Source of the DNA: a virus
Taxonomy: Duplodnaviria; Heunggongvirae; Uroviricota; Caudoviricetes
Strand: one strand, 5' to 3'
Length of the DNA: 8,553 bases
Virus record (IMG/VR): IMGVR_UViG_2617270968_000006
Position numbers and translations under genes: made by a program. Position 1 is the first letter of the stretch. The number at the start of each line of letters is the position of its first letter. The notes under the pieces were generated by a model. The model did not search any database, had not been told where the DNA came from, and saw only the letters and a list, made by a program, of their open reading frames with translations. Shown piece after piece: positions 1 through 7,597 of the stretch.

Positions 1-1011
1 TTATAACGTCACTCCGCCTTTTAGTGGATTCAGAGCGACGGCGTTCTGCAGGTAGTCAGGCGCAAGGTGCGCATAGGTCATTGTCTGCTGAATGCTCGCA
101 TGCCCCAGAATCTGTTGCAGTGCAATTATGTTGCCCCCATTCATCATGAAATGGCTTGCGAATGTATGCCGCAGAATGTGGGTTGCCTGATTGGGAGGTA
201 TATCAGGTTTCACTCTGCGTAAAATCCCGCAAAACTTCTCATAATCTACCTTGAACAATTTGGCGCTGGCCTCCTCTTTAACTTTTTTCTCCAGTTCCTC
301 AGAAATCGGCACTGTTCGCTTTTTACCGTTTTTGGTTTTCAGGAAGGTAACCCTGCAACTTGTAATCTGTGCTGGTTTTAGTGTGGCAACTTCCGTCCAC
401 CTTCCTCCAGTGCTCAGACATAAAAGCGCGACAAGTAAGTCATCACCAGTCAAAACATTTAGCAGTTTTTCGATTTCTGCTTTTTCCAGGAACGTCATTT
501 CAGGGTTAGCCTCCGTCAGTGGCGGCAGTCCGTGAATTGGGTGTTGCCCGGAAAATTCATCCAATTGAATTAATTTTGTGAACATGCCGGATAATCGGTA
601 CATGTCGCGGTTTATCGTTGCAGCACTGATGCCATCACGTAGTCGCATGGAGCGATAATCCATCAAAGCCCTTTTGTTCATCCGACTCACTGGTATATCA
701 CCTATGCCGCTGATGGTTTTGAGCAGATGATTAAACTCTTTTGTCCCATGCTCGTGGTTTTGCCCGTGGTATTTCCACCAGATGTCGAGCAATTCTGTCA
801 AAGTTCGGCGGTCTGCTCGCTGGCCTCCCCATTCTTTCTGACTGGCATTGGCGATTGTGTATCGCTCAAATGCTAGTGCTTCAGCTTTTCTTTCAAATTT
901 CCTGCGGATGCGTTTTCCGTCGCGACCGCGAGGTCTAATGTCCACTTCATAGCGACCATCATCGAGCTTCTTAATTGCCATAAGAAAGCCCTCCGGCGCT
1001 GTATTCACCAT
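1..1011 (-). CDS. int: Tyrosine site-specific recombinase (P2-type integrase), 336 aa, complete; stop codon at 1..3
   Basis: ATG at 1009-1011 (minus) to TAA at 1-3. C-terminal region has the HxxR motif (HILRHTF) and a likely catalytic Tyr (TMTYAHL); basic N-terminal arm-binding-like domain. Size matches P2 Int (about 337 aa, from memory). Confidence 0.9.
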   Translation of the reverse strand: MVNTAPEGFLMAIKKLDDGRYEVDIRPRGRDGKRIRRKFERKAEALAFERYTIANASQKEWGGQRADRRTLTELLDIWWKYHGQNHEHGTKEFNHLLKTISGIGDIPVSRMNKRALMDYRSMRLRDGISAATINRDMYRLSGMFTKLIQLDEFSGQHPIHGLPPLTEANPEMTFLEKAEIEKLLNVLTGDDLLVALLCLSTGGRWTEVATLKPAQITSCRVTFLKTKNGKKRTVPISEELEKKVKEEASAKLFKVDYEKFCGILRRVKPDIPPNQATHILRHTFASHFMMNGGNIIALQQILGHASIQQTMTYAHLAPDYLQNAVALNPLKGGVTL

Positions 1012-1050
1012 CTTGGTGGCAAATGGTGAAAATGTAATTTTTATATAGAG

Positions 1051-1344
1051 TTAGCCAATCCTTTTCGCGGAGTGGTTGGATTCTGTTGACTCTGGCCCAC
1101 TGTGCGCGAGAGACGGTGCGATTTGTCCCGCTTCCGGCGCTGTTTTATCTGTCATGAGCCATAGTGTGTATTTTTGGAACTGAGGTGCATTGGTGACCTG
1201 CAACACAACTTGGATGCCAGGGTCTTGATGGCCTCCTTCGTAATTCTTTAGCGTTCCTAACGCTATGCCGCTGATTTCACTGAATTTTGCTTGAGTTAGC
1301 CCTTCCGATTGTCTTATTGCTCTTAATTTCTGTGCGATATTCAT
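1051..1344 (-). CDS. C: P2 C-type immunity repressor homolog, 97 aa (internal start of the 158-aa track ORF)
   Basis: Translation MNIAQKLRAIRQSEGLTQAKFSEISGIALGTLKNYEGG... has an N-terminal HTH and a C-terminal segment (QFQKYTLWLMTDKTAPEAGQIAPSLAHSG) strongly reminiscent of P2 C. Sits immediately upstream of and co-oriented with int, as in P2. Start chosen at ATG 1342-1344 because the longer form would overlap the divergent promoter region. Confidence 0.8.
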   Translation of the reverse strand: MNIAQKLRAIRQSEGLTQAKFSEISGIALGTLKNYEGGHQDPGIQVVLQVTNAPQFQKYTLWLMTDKTAPEAGQIAPSLAHSGPESTESNHSAKRIG

Positions 1345-1374
1345 TTGACATAGTCCTGACTTAATGACTATATT
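1345..1374 (+). promoter_or_regulatory. Candidate early promoter (Pe-like) driving cox-B-A: -35 TTGACA (1345-1350), 18-bp spacer, -10 TATATT (1369-1374)
   Basis: Consensus -35 hexamer and near-consensus -10 read directly from the sequence, positioned between the repressor start and cox. Confidence 0.45.
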
Positions 1375-1409
1375 CCCCGAAAAGGTCATTAATCCAGAAC
1401 CTTTTCGGG
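1361..1409. promoter_or_regulatory. Nested inverted repeats in the switch region: TTAATGAC (1361-1368) / GTCATTAA (1385-1392) flanking the -10, and CCCGAAAAGGT (1376-1386) / ACCTTTTCGGG (1399-1409); candidate operator(s) or leader RNA hairpin
   Basis: Perfect 8-bp and 11-bp inverted repeats seen directly in the sequence, overlapping the candidate Pe -10 and transcript start. Confidence 0.4.
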
Positions 1410-1479
1410 CGTGAGTCCAGCGCCGCTTAAACGGTTCCAAGCGGTTTTTAAGGGGCTGGATCCTATGAGGGTAACATAG

Positions 1480-1752
1480 ATGGAAGTTAATGATTATGTG
1501 ATTAAGTACCCGCTTGATGCGGTACATGCGGAAAAGTTTGCAGATTTATTGGGTAAACCAAAAACCGCAGTTACAGAAATGATAAAGGCTAACAAGCTAC
1601 CGGTTATCGAGCTTCGAGATCCAAATAAGCCGAAGGCCCGCGCCGGTGAGAAATGGGTTTTCATTCCAGAGTTTAATCGCGCTGTACGTGAGGCGTTTTA
1701 TAACCGACCGGTTGAACAGCGTGATGCATGGCTTTTGTGGATGGGGTTGTGA
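1480..1752 (+). CDS. cox: Cox-like excisionase / early repressor of lysogenic promoter, 90 aa
   Basis: First gene of the rightward operon. Translation carries KLPVIEL.DP...RAGEKWVFIPEFN...RDAWLLWMGL, which resembles my recollection of P2 Cox. GAGGG RBS 8 nt upstream of ATG 1480. Confidence 0.75.
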   Translation: MEVNDYVIKYPLDAVHAEKFADLLGKPKTAVTEMIKANKLPVIELRDPNKPKARAGEKWVFIPEFNRAVREAFYNRPVEQRDAWLLWMGL

Positions 1753-1754
1753 TT

Positions 1755-1925
1755 ATGAATGAGCCGCGTTGTATTGCGCAGTTACTGCGTAACGAAAGCC
1801 CCAGGGCGATTGACTTCACCATCACCCACGGGAAGGGACGCAAGGGAATCATTATCCGCACCAAAAAACAGAGTCCGTTAAAAAAGGCTCTGACCTTTCT
1901 GAAAAGCCGGAGGGTATGGAAATGA
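1755..1925 (+). CDS. Small hypothetical protein, 56 aa, in the position of P2 orf78
   Basis: ATG at 1755 three nt after the cox stop; basic small protein; assignment by synteny only. Confidence 0.5.
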   Translation: MNEPRCIAQLLRNESPRAIDFTITHGKGRKGIIIRTKKQSPLKKALTFLKSRRVWK

Positions 1926-2422
1926 CAGTGATGACGCTCAATCTCGTTGAAAAACAGCCAGCAGCTATGCGCCGGATAATTGGTAAGCATCTGGCCGTCC
2001 CTCGCTGGCAGGATACATGTGATTATTATAATCAGATGATGGAGCGCGAACGGCTAACAGTTTGCTTTCATGCGCAGTTAAAACAACGTCACGCAACGAT
2101 GCGTTTTGAAGAAATGAACGACGTCGAACGTGAACGACTGGTATGTGCAATTGATGAATTGCGTGGGGCATTCTCAAAACGCCGTCAGGTTGGCGCAAGT
2201 GAGTATGCATATATTAGTTTTTTAACAGTCAGTCAGCGTCGTACTTTATTTATGCATGCCGGATTGACTGAAAAAGAATTCAACCAGCCATACTGGCGAA
2301 TTAATGAAGAATCATGTTACTGGCGTGATGCTTTATTCCGTGCATTACGTGAATTATTCAGCCTGTTTGAGTATGCACCGACAATTCTGACGTCGGTAAA
2401 ACCAGAGCAATATCTGCATTAA
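1922..2422 (+). CDS. B: P2 B-like replication protein (DnaB helicase loader family), 166 aa
   Basis: Position between cox/orf78 and the small-ORF cluster, and a length equal to P2 B (166 aa when started at ATG 1922, 7 nt after a GGAGGG RBS). Start overlaps the orf78 stop (ATGA). Confidence 0.7.
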   Translation: MTVMTLNLVEKQPAAMRRIIGKHLAVPRWQDTCDYYNQMMERERLTVCFHAQLKQRHATMRFEEMNDVERERLVCAIDELRGAFSKRRQVGASEYAYISFLTVSQRRTLFMHAGLTEKEFNQPYWRINEESCYWRDALFRALRELFSLFEYAPTILTSVKPEQYLH

Positions 2423-2485
2423 GTAATTAACCAGAGTTTTTAACGCACTTAATTGTGCGGGGCTTCTTTTTGCCTGGAGAAAGTC

Positions 2486-2710
2486 ATGCATACAGTTTCT
2501 GAAAATCAGTGCGGTAAATACGCATTACTGCTGCAACAGGCCAGAACCGAAGCACAGGCCGATGCAGCGACGCGCTTTTCTTCTCATCTTGACGCCATGA
2601 TTCGACACATCACAAAGGCGGAGTTATCCCGCGTGGAGATAGTCGAGCTGCTCAGTCAGGAGTCGGAAAAATTTCACAATATCGGATTGTCTCGCGGGGA
2701 GGTGCTTTGA
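2486..2710 (+). CDS. Small hypothetical early protein, 74 aa (P2 orf80 position)
   Basis: GGAGAAAG RBS then ATG at 2486; stop TGA 2708-2710 overlaps the next start (TGATG). Function unknown. Confidence 0.5.
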
Positions 2711-3012
2711 TGTCCTGTTCTCGTTCGGTTGTATTACTGAATAACGCCTTAAAAATCGCCGTTATGAAAAATGGCGATTTATCTCTTATTCAACTTGGTC
2801 TTGATAAAGAAAAACGCGAAATAACTGAGTCTGTTATCGCGATTTATCAGAATGAATTAAATATCCTGTCTGATGTGGTCAATTTACTTGTTAAACGCGC
2901 TGTATTTCACAAGCAAATCTCCTCCGTGGATGAACTGACGAAATTAACGACAGAAATTGCCAGCTATTGCGCTGATGAATTTAAAAAACTTAACGACAAA
3001 AGGAGCTGGTAA
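2710..3012 (+). CDS. Small hypothetical early protein, 100 aa (P2 orf81 position)
   Basis: ATG at 2710 overlapping the upstream stop; stop TAA 3010-3012 overlaps the next ATG (TAATG). No recognisable motif. Confidence 0.5.
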   Translation: MSCSRSVVLLNNALKIAVMKNGDLSLIQLGLDKEKREITESVIAIYQNELNILSDVVNLLVKRAVFHKQISSVDELTKLTTEIASYCADEFKKLNDKRSW

Positions 3013-3236
3013 TGCCGGACAACGTGGATTTTATTCAGGAACAACAGGCTGAATTACTGGAGCGTCAGATTAACGCGGCAAGGGTAAAACATTGCGGTGC
3101 TTCTGCGCTGGTTTGCGAAGAGTGTGACGCGCCAATACCTGCTGCCCGTCGTGCGGCTTATCCGTCAGCCACGCGTTGTGTTTCCTGTCAGTCAGTCTTT
3201 GAAGCAAAAAACAAACATTACCGGAGAACGGCATGA
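3012..3236 (+). CDS. TraR/DksA-family C4 zinc-finger protein, 74 aa (P2 orf82 position)
   Basis: AAAGGAG RBS before ATG 3012. Translation contains CEEC-x17-CVSC, the CxxC-x17-CxxC spacing characteristic of DksA/TraR zinc fingers. Confidence 0.7.
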   Translation: MPDNVDFIQEQQAELLERQINAARVKHCGASALVCEECDAPIPAARRAAYPSATRCVSCQSVFEAKNKHYRRTA

Positions 3237-3508
3237 GTATTCGTATTGAAATTGGCGAACGTTATGTCGTTACCAGTGACAGCTTTCAGTTTATTCTCCA
3301 CGAGAAAAAGAGAGCGGAAAGCGGTAAAAACGCCGGTCAGGAATGGCTGGCGGTGGTTGGTTATTGCCCGAAATTAAGCCAGCTCGTTTCCGGCCTGATG
3401 CATCACGATATTCTGACCGGAAGCGCAAAGTCTTTTGCTGATTTAAACGCGCAGGTTGAGCAACTCAGCAGGCGTTGTTCAGAGGCTTTGGGCTCATATG
3501 GCCGTTAA
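3233..3508 (+). CDS. Small hypothetical early protein, 91 aa (P2 orf83 position)
   Basis: ATG 3233 overlaps the orf82 stop (ATGA); its own stop overlaps the start of A by about 11 nt. Confidence 0.5.
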   Translation: MSIRIEIGERYVVTSDSFQFILHEKKRAESGKNAGQEWLAVVGYCPKLSQLVSGLMHHDILTGSAKSFADLNAQVEQLSRRCSEALGSYGR

Positions 3509-5735
3509 AGCCTCCGGGCGTTTTGTCCCTCCGTCAGCATATGCCGCAGGCACCGGTAAGACGTTTACCGGTGCTTATGCATGGAACGCGCCACGCGAGG
3601 CTGTCGGGCGCGAAAGACCCCTTACACGTGACGAGATGCGTCAGGTGCAAGGTGTTTTATCCACGATTAACCGCCTGCCTTACTTTTTACGCTCGCTGTT
3701 TACTTCACGCTATGACTACATCCGGCGCAATAAAAGCCCGGTGCACGGGTTTTATTTCCTCACATCCACTTTTCAGCGTCGTTTATGGCCGCGCATTGAG
3801 CGTGTGAATCAGCGCCATGAAATGAACACCGACGCGTCGTTGCTGTTTCTGGCAGAGCGTGACCACTATGCGCGCCTGCCGGGAATGAATGACAAGGAGC
3901 TGAAAAAGTTTGCTGCCCGTATCTCATCGCAGCTTTTCATGATGTATGAGGAACTCTGCGATGCCTGGGTTGATGCACATGGCGAAAAAGAATCGCTGTT
4001 TACGGATGAGGCGCAGGCTCACCTCTATGGTCATGTTGCTGGCGCTGCATGTGCTTTCAATATTTCCCCGCTCTACTGGAAAAAATACCGTAAAGGACAG
4101 ATGACCACGAGGCAGGCATATTCTGCCATTGCCCGCCTGTTTAACGATGAGTGGTGGACTCATCAGCTTAAAGGCCAGCGTATGCGCTGGCATGAGGCGT
4201 TACTGATTGCTGTCGGGGAGGTCAATAAAGACCGTTCTCCTTATGCCAGTAAACATGCCATTCGGGATGTGCGTGCACGCCGCCAGGCAAATCTGGAATT
4301 TCTTAAATCGTGTGACCTTGAAAACAGGGAAACCGGCGAGCGCATCGACCTTATCAGTAAGGTGATGGGCAGTATTTCTAATCCTGAAATTCGCCGGATG
4401 GAGCTGATGAACACCATCGCTGGAATTGAGCGTTACGCCGCCGCAGAGGGTGATGTGGGGATGTTTATCACGCTGACCGCGCCGTCAAAGTATCACCCGA
4501 CTCGTCAGGTCAGAAAAGGCGAAAGTAAAACCGTTCAGCTTAATCACGGCTGGAACGATGAGGCATTTAATCCAAAGGATGCGCAGCGTTATCTCTGCCG
4601 TATCTGGAGCCTGATGCGCACGGCATTCAAGGATAATGATTTACAGGTCTACGGTTTGCGTGTCGTCGAGCCACACCACGACGGAACGCCGCACTGGCAT
4701 ATGATGCTTTTTTGTAATCCACGCCAGCGCAACCAGATTATCGAAATCATGCGTCGCTATGCGCTCAAAGAGGATGGCGACGAAAGAGGAGCCGCGCGAA
4801 ACCGTTTTCAGGCAAAACACCTTAACCGGGGCGGTGCTGCGGGATATATCGCGAAATACATTTCAAAAAACATCGACGGCTATGCACTGGATGGTCAGCT
4901 CGATAATGATACCGGTAGGCCGCTGAAAGACACAGCTGCGGCTGTTACCGCATGGGCGTCAACGTGGCGCATTCCGCAATTTAAAACGGTTGGCCTGCCG
5001 ACAATGGGGGCTTACCGTGAACTACGCAAATTGCCTCGCGGCGTCAGCATTGCTGATGAGTTTGACGAGCGCGTCGAGGCTGCACGCGCCGCTGCAGACA
5101 GTGGTGATTTTGCGTTGTATATCAGCGCGCAGGGCGGGGCAAATGTCCCGCGCGATTGTCAGACTGTCAGGGTCGCCCGTAGCCCGTCGGATGACGTTAA
5201 CGAGTACGAGGAAGAAGTCGAGAGAGTGGTCGGCATTTACGCGCCGCATCTCGGCGCGCGTCATATTCATATCACCAGAACGACGGACTGGCGCATTGTG
5301 CCGAAAGTTCCGGTCGTTGAGCCTTTGACTTTAAAAAGCGGCATCGCCGCGCCTCGGAGTCCTGTCAATAACTGTGGAAAGCTCACCGGTGGTGATACTT
5401 CGTTACCGGCTCCCACATCTTCTGAGCACGCCGCAGCAGTGCTAAATCTGGTTGAAGACGGTGTTATCGAATGGAATGACCCGGAGGTCGTGAGGACGCT
5501 CAGGGGTGCATTAAAACACGGCCTGAGAACACCAAATCGTCAGCAAAGAAACGGAATCCCGTTAAAACCGCATGAAATTGCACCATCTGCCAGACTGACC
5601 AGGTCTGAACGATTGCAAATTACCCGTAGCGGATATCGCGCGCGGCGGGATAGAACGAGCGAACGAGCTGGAACACGCCGACACCGAGGCCGGTGGCATC
5701 AATTCCGATGTATTCGACGTTGTATTTTTCGGTGA
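3498..5735 (+). CDS. A: P2 A-like rolling-circle replication initiator (HUH endonuclease), C-terminally disrupted: native sequence appears to end near 5625 and the last ~35 codons read through into antisense terminase DNA
   Basis: Start MAVKASGRFVPP at ATG 3498. HUH motif PHWHMML (HWH codons 4692-4700) and a YIAKYISK double-tyrosine motif (Tyr codons 4845-4847 and 4857-4859), as in phiX174/P2 A proteins. Tail SGYRARRDRTSERAGTRRHRGRW is arginine-rich junk overlapping the minus-strand P fragment. Confidence 0.85.
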   Translation: MAVKASGRFVPPSAYAAGTGKTFTGAYAWNAPREAVGRERPLTRDEMRQVQGVLSTINRLPYFLRSLFTSRYDYIRRNKSPVHGFYFLTSTFQRRLWPRIERVNQRHEMNTDASLLFLAERDHYARLPGMNDKELKKFAARISSQLFMMYEELCDAWVDAHGEKESLFTDEAQAHLYGHVAGAACAFNISPLYWKKYRKGQMTTRQAYSAIARLFNDEWWTHQLKGQRMRWHEALLIAVGEVNKDRSPYASKHAIRDVRARRQANLEFLKSCDLENRETGERIDLISKVMGSISNPEIRRMELMNTIAGIERYAAAEGDVGMFITLTAPSKYHPTRQVRKGESKTVQLNHGWNDEAFNPKDAQRYLCRIWSLMRTAFKDNDLQVYGLRVVEPHHDGTPHWHMMLFCNPRQRNQIIEIMRRYALKEDGDERGAARNRFQAKHLNRGGAAGYIAKYISKNIDGYALDGQLDNDTGRPLKDTAAAVTAWASTWRIPQFKTVGLPTMGAYRELRKLPRGVSIADEFDERVEAARAAADSGDFALYISAQGGANVPRDCQTVRVARSPSDDVNEYEEEVERVVGIYAPHLGARHIHITRTTDWRIVPKVPVVEPLTLKSGIAAPRSPVNNCGKLTGGDTSLPAPTSSEHAAAVLNLVEDGVIEWNDPEVVRTLRGALKHGLRTPNRQQRNGIPLKPHEIAPSARLTRSERLQITRSGYRARRDRTSERAGTRRHRGRWHQFRCIRRCIFR

Positions 5736-6180
5736 GTTTGCGGATGGATTCAGCCTGGGTGGCAAAGTCCATGCCTTTCCACTGGTGACGCTCAAGTATT
5801 CTGAATTTGCCACCGGCCACCACCGGCGGTGCCAGTACCACGCATCCGGCGCTGTCGCCACGGTGTGACGGGTCGTAACCAATCCATACCGGGCGGGATC
5901 CGAACGGATTGGCGGCAAACGGCGCATAGTCTTCCCATTCTTCCAGCGTGTCGACCATGCAGCGTTGCAGCTCCTCGAACGGGAACACCGACGCCTTGTC
6001 GTCAACAAATTCACACATGAACAGGTTTTTAAAATCGTCGGCGCTGTTTTCGCGTTTAAGCTGCTCAATGTCGAACAGCGTGCAGCCACCTTTCAGGGCG
6101 TCCTCAATGGTGACAATCTGCCGCCACTGGCCGTCCGCACAGAGAAGCCCACCGGCAAGGGCGTTATGTCCCGCCGACAC
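5620..6180 (-). pseudogene. Fragment (about 186 codons) of terminase large subunit (P2 gpP-like), nuclease-domain region; N-terminal ATPase portion deleted
   Basis: Translation contains WIGYDPSHRGDSAGCVVLAPP and EYIGIDATGLGVGV, typical acidic-residue motifs of the terminase RNase-H-like nuclease domain. Minus-strand orientation relative to A matches P2, where Q and P are transcribed opposite to A. Far too short for a terminase. Confidence 0.7.
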
Positions 6181-6185
6181 CGGCC

Positions 6186-6746
6186 GTGATGGAATCTGAC
6201 ACCGATTATCGTCTGCGTATTCAGCAGGCCTTTGAAGGTTTAAGCGTCGCCGGGTCGGTGGGTGCCTATCAGTATCATGGTCGCAGTGCTGACGGGCGTG
6301 TCGCGGATATCTCTGTCACCAGTCCGTCTCCGGCCTGCGTCACCATCTCTGTGCTGTCACGTGAAAATAACGGTGTCGCATCCGAAGACCTGCTGGCGGT
6401 GGTGCGTAACGCCCTTAATGGCGAGGACGTCAGGCCGGTGGCCGACCGCGTGACCGTGCAGTCTGCCGCCATCGTTGAATATCAGATAAACGCCACGCTT
6501 TACCTTTACCCTGGTCCCGAAAGCGAACCCATTCGCGCTGCCGCTGTGAAAAAGCTGGAAGCGTATATCACGGCACAGCACCGGCTGGGGCGCGACATCC
6601 GTTTGTCTGCCATTTATGCCGCTTTGCATGTGGAAGGCGTGCAGCGTGTCGAGCTGGCCGCACCACTGGCCGACATTGTGCTCAACAGTACGCAGGCGTC
6701 TTTCTGTACCGAATACCGCGTCGTGACCGGAGGCTCGGATGAGTGA
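6186..6746 (+). pseudogene. C-terminal fragment (about 186 aa) of baseplate assembly protein J-like; 5' part deleted
   Basis: Directly followed by an overlapping ATGAGTGA junction with the gpI start, as for J/I in P2; abuts the terminase fragment with no intervening genes. Confidence 0.65.
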
Positions 6747-6903
6747 TTCGCGACTGCTGCCGACTGGCTCATCACCGCTTGAAGTTGCCGCCGCAAAAGC
6801 CTGTGCGGAAATTGAAAAAACGCCGGTCAGTATTCGTGAGCTGTGGAACCCGGATACCTGCCCGGCAAATCTGCTGCCGTGGCTGGCGTGGTCATTTTCG
6901 GTT
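6739..6903 (+). pseudogene. N-terminal fragment (about 55 aa) of baseplate protein I-like; remainder deleted
   Basis: MSDSRLLPTGSSPLEVAAAKACAEIEKTPVSIRELWNPDTCPANLLPWLAW matches my recollection of the P2 gpI N-terminus; the frame then degenerates and terminates at 6966. Confidence 0.6.
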
Positions 6904-6939
6904 GGCGGAGTTCTCCATCAGCCTGGCTACCGGTCGGGC

Positions 6940-7114
6940 AGATATTTACACGGAAACACCGGTTAAAGTGTCAGGCTTTAAGCGCGTCATAGACGAGCAG
7001 GACTGGACAATCACTAAGGTGACACATTTTCTGAATAATAGCGGCTTCACGACGTCCTTGGAGCTTGAGGTCAGGCTTTCTGATGTGGAGTACGAAACAG
7101 AAGATGATGAGTGA
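6940..7114 (+). pseudogene. C-terminal fragment of tail protein D-like (last ~60 aa), ending with an acidic tail EYETEDDE immediately upstream of ogr
   Basis: Different reading frame from the I fragment; position immediately upstream of ogr matches P2 gene order (D-ogr). Start of homology is approximate. Confidence 0.55.
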
Positions 7115-7195
7115 TGTTTTTGTTTTATCTGTTTGTTTTATAAGGATAAATTAACTAAAATGGCACCATCAACAAAACCGGAAGAGGTGCTCGCG

Positions 7196-7414
7196 ATGTT
7201 TCATTGTCCTTTATGCCAGCATGCCGCACATGCGCGTACAAGCCGCTATATCACTGACACGACAAAAGAGCGTTATCACCAGTGTCAGAACGTGAATTGC
7301 AGCGCCACGTTCATCACCTATGAGTCGGTACAGAGATACATCGTGAAGCCGGGAGAAGTCCACGCCGTAAGGCCGCACCCGTTGCCGTCAGGGCAGCAAA
7401 TTATGTGGATGTGA
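7196..7414 (+). CDS. ogr: Ogr late-gene transcription activator (zinc-finger), 72 aa, intact
   Basis: MFHCPLCQHAAHARTSRYITDTTKERYHQCQNVNCSATFITYESVQRYIVKPGEVHAVRPHPLPSGQQIMWM corresponds to P2 Ogr as I recall it, with Cys4 motif CPLC...CQNVNC. GAAGAGG RBS before ATG 7196. Confidence 0.9.
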   Translation: MFHCPLCQHAAHARTSRYITDTTKERYHQCQNVNCSATFITYESVQRYIVKPGEVHAVRPHPLPSGQQIMWM

Positions 7415-7424
7415 TCACAAAAAT

Positions 7425-7450
7425 AGCCCCTCAGTTGAGGGGCTTTATTT
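7425..7450 (+). terminator. Rho-independent terminator after ogr
   Basis: Stem AGCCCCTC (7425-7432), loop AGTT, GAGGGGCT (7437-7444), followed by TTTATTT. Confidence 0.7.
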
Positions 7451-7457
7451 ATGGTCG

Positions 7458-7476
7458 ATGTGGACGCTATGTGGAC
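7458..7476 (+). repeat. Two direct repeats ATGTGGAC (7458-7465 and 7469-7476); candidate integrase arm-type binding sites of the att P-arm
   Basis: Direct repeats seen in the sequence; they resemble my recollection of the P2 Int arm-site consensus (TGTGGACA-like) and sit where the P arm should be (just after ogr). A third similar copy, ATGTGGAT, lies at the ogr 3' end (7403-7410). Confidence 0.5.
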
Positions 7477-7542
7477 AGCGGTTGACATAAATCCATTTAT
7501 ATCATCAGGTTAGGTGCTTTTTTGTGACACCATCCCTGTCTT

Positions 7543-7569
7543 CCCCCACATGCTGTGGGGGTTTTTTTT
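7543..7569 (+). terminator. Rho-independent terminator-like hairpin; possibly the 3' end of the host gene at the att core
   Basis: Stem CCCCCACA (7543-7550), loop TGC, TGTGGGGG (7554-7561), then T8 (7562-7569). Confidence 0.65.
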
Positions 7570-7597
7570 ATCCTCAATTTGCCTGCTGCTTAATGCA

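Follow-up and report, generated by a model that had tools for sequence, protein, structure and literature searches.

Sequence comparison of the window (the whole 8,553-nucleotide stretch of DNA that was analysed) revealed a defective P2-like (Peduovirus) prophage located between cpxP and fieF of Escherichia coli, which has been cut to approximately 7.7 kb by three internal deletions. We conclude with high confidence that the feature under study is an ordinary deletion scar in this decayed P2-type prophage, in which the terminal part of replication gene A directly abuts a residual piece of the terminase gene P, the A-to-Q cargo, cos, and the portal gene Q are lost, and RecA-independent illegitimate recombination is the likeliest origin. 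The scar was placed by BLAST against P2 (NC_001895) and by base-level comparison:

5626–5628, no strand: deletion junction 1, a GTA common to both parental flanks, the breakpoint lying somewhere within it (base-level comparison and BLAST boundaries)

On the A side, positions 1754–5628 of the window correspond to P2 26290–30164 with 97.4% identity and comprise orf78, B, orf80–83, and A up to its base 2131. On the P side, positions 5626–6168 correspond to P2 1500–2042 with 98.3% identity and in the same orientation as the A-side match, so that the two P2 matches overlap by 3 bases. Searches of phage records and of complete E. coli genomes likewise ended the A-side match at 5628 and began the P-side match at 5626. 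In a base-by-base comparison, all four references used (P2, E. coli 4/4, 26561, and AST46) placed the breakpoint in the GTA with no filler bases. The parental A side reads ...ACCCGTA followed by TCCG..., the parental P side reads ...GCGTGTA followed by GCGG..., and the window reads ...ACCCGTAGCGG... The initial annotation had put the junction near 5620–5630 and had proposed an alignment to P2 A and P together with an inspection of the breakpoint for microhomology; the alignment narrowed the position to within 5626–5628, and the inspection revealed the shared 3-base GTA.

The flanks of the joint are colinear with the parent and in the same orientation, no filler separates them, and a few bases are shared, as is characteristic of an illegitimate deletion. 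Since at least three shared bases would be expected by chance at about 5% of random junctions, the 3-base microhomology fits microhomology-guided joining and is suggestive of it, without being strong evidence for such joining.

Relative to P2, 4,931 bp are missing at this junction (30165–33593 plus 1–1502). In the P2 annotation, the interval between the breakpoints holds the last 51 codons of A, orf91, tin, old, cos, Q, and P codons 499–590, which bears out the content assigned to it at first reading (orf91, tin, old, cos, and Q) and adds to that list the codons of P. Relative to the E. coli 4/4 prophage, 3,188 bp are missing, comprising the 3′ end of A, a HEPN-domain gene, cos (position 10313 of locus L005), Q, and the 3′ end of P. 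The HEPN gene is the cargo of 4/4 itself; close relatives differ at the hotspot, and the direct ancestor may have carried another.

The A-to-Q interval is documented as a hotspot for defence cargo in P2-like phages (Rousset et al. 2022, PMC9122126). In support of this notion, and of the earlier remark that variable anti-phage cargo is common at this position, relatives integrated at the same cpxP–fieF site carry HEPN, DEAD/DEAH helicase, HIRAN, reverse-transcriptase, or hypothetical genes between A and Q. The site itself is used by many E. coli P2-like prophages, whose backbones are 95–99% identical and whose varying A-to-Q cargo includes three hypothetical genes.

In the window, A is joined directly to P with no intervening DNA, and no accessory gene lies between A and cos/Q. 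A cos-like 19-mer was not found in the window within 4 mismatches, nor was the 19-base cos found in the 22-kb source locus within 2 mismatches; the same 19-base sequence is present in three relatives. With nothing between the flanks and no cos-like 19-mer, the interval is wholly absent and no defence cargo survives, as the initial annotation had claimed. Furthermore, the other two accessory positions of P2, orf30 and fun(Z), fall within the two other deletions of the remnant (deletions 2 and 3, described below), which therefore leaves it without any cargo position.

A single break-and-join event accounts for this arrangement: it linked base 2131 of A to the end of P codon 498 at the GTA microhomology. 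Lost with it were the 3′ end of A, the whole A-to-Q hotspot, and cos, as well as Q, which encodes the portal, and the 3′-terminal quarter of P. RecA-independent illegitimate recombination, either by microhomology-guided end joining or by replication slippage, is the most likely route. A more specific version of this explanation is that the terminase itself triggered the deletion, whereby abortive in situ cleavage at cos would have produced a chromosomal double-strand break, both ends would have been resected, and the ends would have been rejoined at the microhomology. Such a trigger is compatible with the lost interval, which encloses cos, with the 3-base microhomology at the joint, and with the similar arms around cos on the closest intact relative (approximately 1,684 bp towards A and 1,485 bp towards Q/P). 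However, this apparent centring may be accidental, as the ancestor's cargo may have differed in length and the arms measured against P2 are 3,429 and 1,502 bp. The two other deletions in the remnant, moreover, are unrelated to cos. On balance, we consider a terminase trigger unlikely, and illegitimate recombination in its general form remains our preferred reading.

The remainder of the window delineates the other deletions and the boundaries of the element:

1–3508, no strand given: intact early region with int (1–1011, minus strand), C (1051–1344, minus strand), cox, orf78, B, and orf80–83

6168–6169, no strand given: deletion junction 2, blunt, P2 2042 joined to 11623, P codon 318 joined to J codon 111

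6902–6905, no strand given: deletion junction 3, P2 12356 joined to 23745, I codon 55 joined to the 3′ end of D, with two ambiguous bases

7526–7572, plus strand: attR with the 47-bp att core, followed by the host gene fieF

Beyond junction 2, positions 6169–6902 correspond to P2 11623–12356 and run from J codon 111 to the end of J and into the start of I, and beyond junction 3, positions 6905–7504 correspond to P2 23745–24342 and hold the 3′ end of D, ogr, the ogr terminator, and the P arm of att. Deletion 2 removed the 5′ part of P, O through S, orf30, V, W, and J codons 1–110, and deletion 3 removed most of I, then H, G, fun(Z), FI through U, and most of D. The order of a P2 prophage is kept (int ... 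A ... P ... J, I ... D, ogr) in four colinear, same-strand blocks of 94–98% identity plus a diverged int. Since all blocks retain P2 prophage order and orientation, the remnant is explained by three internal deletions without rearrangement.

The early region contains no indels and no internal stops in comparison with the intact E. coli 4/4 prophage. Its int shares 72–81% identity with P2 int, and BLAST found no DNA match to P2 in the C/cox switch region. At the right boundary, attR forms a direct repeat in host DNA with a second copy of the att core (attL) that lies just left of the window after cpxP and carries 1 mismatch; in the source locus (L006), the two cores occupy 6342–6388 and 14029–14075. 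The 47-bp core (GACACCATCCCTGTCTTCCCCCACATGCTGTGGGGGTTTTTTTTATC) contains a G+C hairpin and then a T run, and is located immediately downstream of cpxP; it seems that the phage integrates into the cpxP terminator and rebuilds it.

The consequences for packaging and morphogenesis are straightforward. The remnant has no cos; Q, O through S, V, W, H, G, and FI through U are absent; and P, J, I, and D persist as fragments. Lacking cos, a portal, and a functional terminase, the element cannot be packaged, and it also encodes no capsid or tail.

At the left flank of junction 1, the deletion has altered the replication gene as follows:

3498–5735, plus strand: A′, a truncated replication gene A with a foreign tail attached, 745 codons and a stop, with codons 1–710 native gpA and codons 711–745 antisense terminase

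5629–5735, plus strand: arginine-rich, out-of-context tail of A′, 35 codons plus TGA, the codon spanning 5626–5628 contributing to residues 710/711

5356, plus strand: equivalent of the P2 ori nick site (P2 29892, NC_001895 annotation), retained inside A

The frame starts at the ATG at 3498 and ends at the TGA at 5733–5735, yielding 745 amino acids, and 692 of the first 710 residues are identical to P2 A. The tail (SGYRARRDRTSERAGTRRHRGRWHQFRCIRRCIFR) is translated from antisense P DNA and includes 13 arginines among its 35 residues, in agreement with the initial annotation, which had read an arginine-rich tail from about 5628 as the antisense of the terminase fragment. The C-terminus is neither native nor full length, as residues 711–761 (P2 numbering) are replaced by these 35 unrelated residues. 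The P2 record confirmed the length of 761 aa that had been given for P2 A; compared with it, A′ lacks 51 residues, close to the 50 or so estimated earlier, and compared with the A of the closest relative (755 aa), it lacks 45.

The catalytic portion of the protein, by contrast with its C-terminus, is preserved. The Pfam profile PF05840 (Phage_GPA) is matched over all of its positions (1–321 of 321) at A′ residues 133–462, and A′ keeps the HUH-type motif PHWHMM at 398 and Y450/Y454 (within GYIAKYISK at 449), at the same positions as in P2 A. We take Y450 and Y454 to be the active-site tyrosines of gpA. In addition, the 61 bases around window position 5356 are identical to the P2 ori nick region. 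In place of gene A there is thus a 745-aa fusion in which the catalytic core and ori are preserved but 45–51 conserved C-terminal residues are missing.

Several comparisons bear on the importance of the lost residues. Residues 711–754 of A can still be aligned in peduoviruses of Yersinia enterocolitica at 43–45% identity, and the last 122 residues are covered to at least 80% in 83 of the 85 phage records. These patterns suggest that the lost tail is under constraint and probably needed. Because the missing residues are conserved across peduoviruses, the A′ fusion is probably impaired or inactive. A search for solved structures related to gpA in the PDB found none.

At the right flank of junction 1, the remaining terminase sequence and the open reading frame that surrounds it are as follows:

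5626–6168, minus strand: internal fragment of the large terminase gene P, codons 318–498 of 590, in which the greater part of the ATPase domain and the latter half of the nuclease domain are missing

5620–6180, minus strand: mechanical open reading frame around the P fragment, made of 4 J-side codons (GTG start), 181 P codons, 1 A-side codon, and a stop

All 181 codons at 5626–6168 encode residues identical to residues 318–498 of P2 gpP (181/181). The Pfam search recovered only positions 167–215 of 215 (the last 49) of Terminase_6N and positions 1–86 of 155 of Terminase_6C, and thus neither the ATPase domain (Terminase_6N) nor the nuclease domain (Terminase_6C) of gpP is complete. The partial domains and the identity to P residues 318–498 alone uphold the earlier description of the frame at 5620–6180 as a terminase fragment and rule out that it is a complete small gene, the possibility that the initial annotation had named as its refutation. 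The gene callers used in the source assemblies made no call for this frame. All points of the initial annotation that were checked proved correct.

P2 has its genes in the same order and orientation as the window to either side of the junction, with 97–98% DNA identity, whereas the int, C, and cox types differ and the site of the window is cpxP–fieF. The closest intact relative is the E. coli 4/4 prophage (NZ_CP023826), which occupies the same cpxP–fieF site and is 99.1% identical without gaps over window positions 1–5628 and 98.5% identical over the P fragment. Unlike the window, it keeps a 755-aa A, its HEPN-domain cargo gene, cos, Q, a full-length P, and the late genes. The int–C–cox module (window 1–1760) is 99.7% identical to that of Yersinia phage P37 (NC_070907), which has the same immunity and integrase type, and only about 89% identical to that of most other peduoviruses. 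This P37-type module, together with the lack of a DNA match to P2 C/cox, indicates that the immunity and integration type differ from those of P2. P37, unlike the window, is a complete phage; its replication region differs, with an additional gene of the PAPS-reductase family, and it carries cargo of its own beyond A.

A second defective P2-like remnant occupies the same cpxP–fieF site in E. coli 26561. As in the window, P is truncated, internal deletions fuse truncated phage genes, and int and ogr stay at the ends. However, in the 26561 remnant A is full length, and a DEAD/DEAH helicase cargo gene, cos, and Q are kept; its one large deletion runs from P to D, and none of its junctions matches those of the window. 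Between ogr and attR (L004 13399–14160) it also contains an additional gene of roughly 640 bp that encodes a hypothetical protein and that the window lacks (7446–7456); this spot may represent a further variable site for cargo, adjacent to att. Escherichia coli K-12 likewise harbours a defective P2 remnant, the ogrK/D-fragment element. Defective P2-like elements that retain defence genes have been described (PMC13586616). Defective P2-like prophages with internal deletions are thus well known, and the present scar, previously undescribed, differs only in the loss of every cargo position.

The integrity of the early genes raises the question of residual function. Because int, cox, C, B, ogr, and ori are intact and A′ is catalytically complete by sequence, the remnant might excise, reintegrate, or amplify, and might make its host immune through the C repressor or hamper P2-type helpers and P4-type satellites; the doubled remnant of one sister assembly, described below, is compatible with an att-to-att tandem duplication after the deletions. 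Nevertheless, we regard it as distinctly improbable that the element is anything other than inert.

It is more doubtful still that the A′-tail fusion or the whole retained early region serves a selected, domesticated function, such as a C-repressor immunity module or a dominant-negative or altered initiator that interferes with P2-like phages or P4 satellites. Although int, C, cox, orf78, B, orf80–83, and ogr are all free of indels and stops and the catalytic core of A′ and ori are intact, the remnant is 99.1% identical to a complete prophage, which leaves too little time for gene decay. Given this near-identity to a working prophage, the early genes are intact because the remnant is young and not because they were selected. 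Moreover, the tail is antisense P sequence without independent conservation, the lineage is rare (two assemblies and 0 of 5,426 complete genomes), and the deletion of all three P2 cargo positions is the opposite of keeping genes for defence (compare PMC13586616). We therefore consider domestication highly unlikely and favour recent, ordinary decay by deletion.

Junction 1 is real and recurs in separate sequence records. Two NCBI draft assemblies contain exactly this 745-aa fusion protein; their accessions are adjacent and they may be close relatives, which limits the independence of the records. GCA_000700185.1 contains the window exactly, and GCA_000700205.1 carries the remnant on two contigs, which differ from the window by 4 and 2 bases. 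In IMG/VR, a junction 28-mer with two degenerate positions gave one match, IMGVR_UViG_2617270952_000008, a provirus cut-out of the same remnant that shares its two SNPs with one of the GCA_000700205.1 contigs. The exact junction 28-mer had no match in GTDB species representatives or in JGI metagenome contigs. Junctions 1 and 2 were both absent from 5,426 complete E. coli genomes, and junction 3 was not found in any complete E. coli genome searched. The lineage that carries the deletion is rare.

The two contigs of GCA_000700205.1 (JNMB01000027 and JNMB01000023; L007 1–170 and L008 13926–13985) hold the whole remnant twice (window 1–7482). One stops 44 bases before the attR core, and the other begins exactly at an att core (an attL-type variant) and extends past int as far as fieF; SNPs at window positions 122, 199, 7562, and 7570 distinguish the copies. 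This arrangement could reflect a post-deletion att-to-att tandem duplication, an assembly overlap, or a mixture of strains.

We give almost no credence to an assembly chimera, in which reads from A and P, possibly from a second P2-like prophage in the same genome, were misjoined: although the source records are draft assemblies, one of which had some trouble with the remnant (held on two overlapping contigs), and although the junction is missing from the complete genomes, its identical recurrence on three contigs of two assemblies with SNP differences, as well as in the IMG/VR entry, and the sharing of only 3 bases at the join (0–3 at the junctions of the remnant), where graph misjoins need a shared k-mer of tens of bases, both argue against it, and the remnant sits between the correct attL and attR cores and single-copy host genes. 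An assembly artefact was rejected on these two grounds of recurrence with SNP differences and the 3-base share.

Beyond correct annotation, the significance of the scar is small, and it represents ordinary prophage decay. The 745-aa "replication endonuclease" at 3498–5735 is a truncated fusion that should be flagged as a pseudogene, the open reading frame at 5620–6180 is a terminase fragment that should be marked likewise, and the prophage should not be counted as a carrier of A-to-Q cargo. The remnant provides a clean, nucleotide-resolved case in which all cargo positions were lost while the early region was kept, in contrast to the elements described in PMC13586616.
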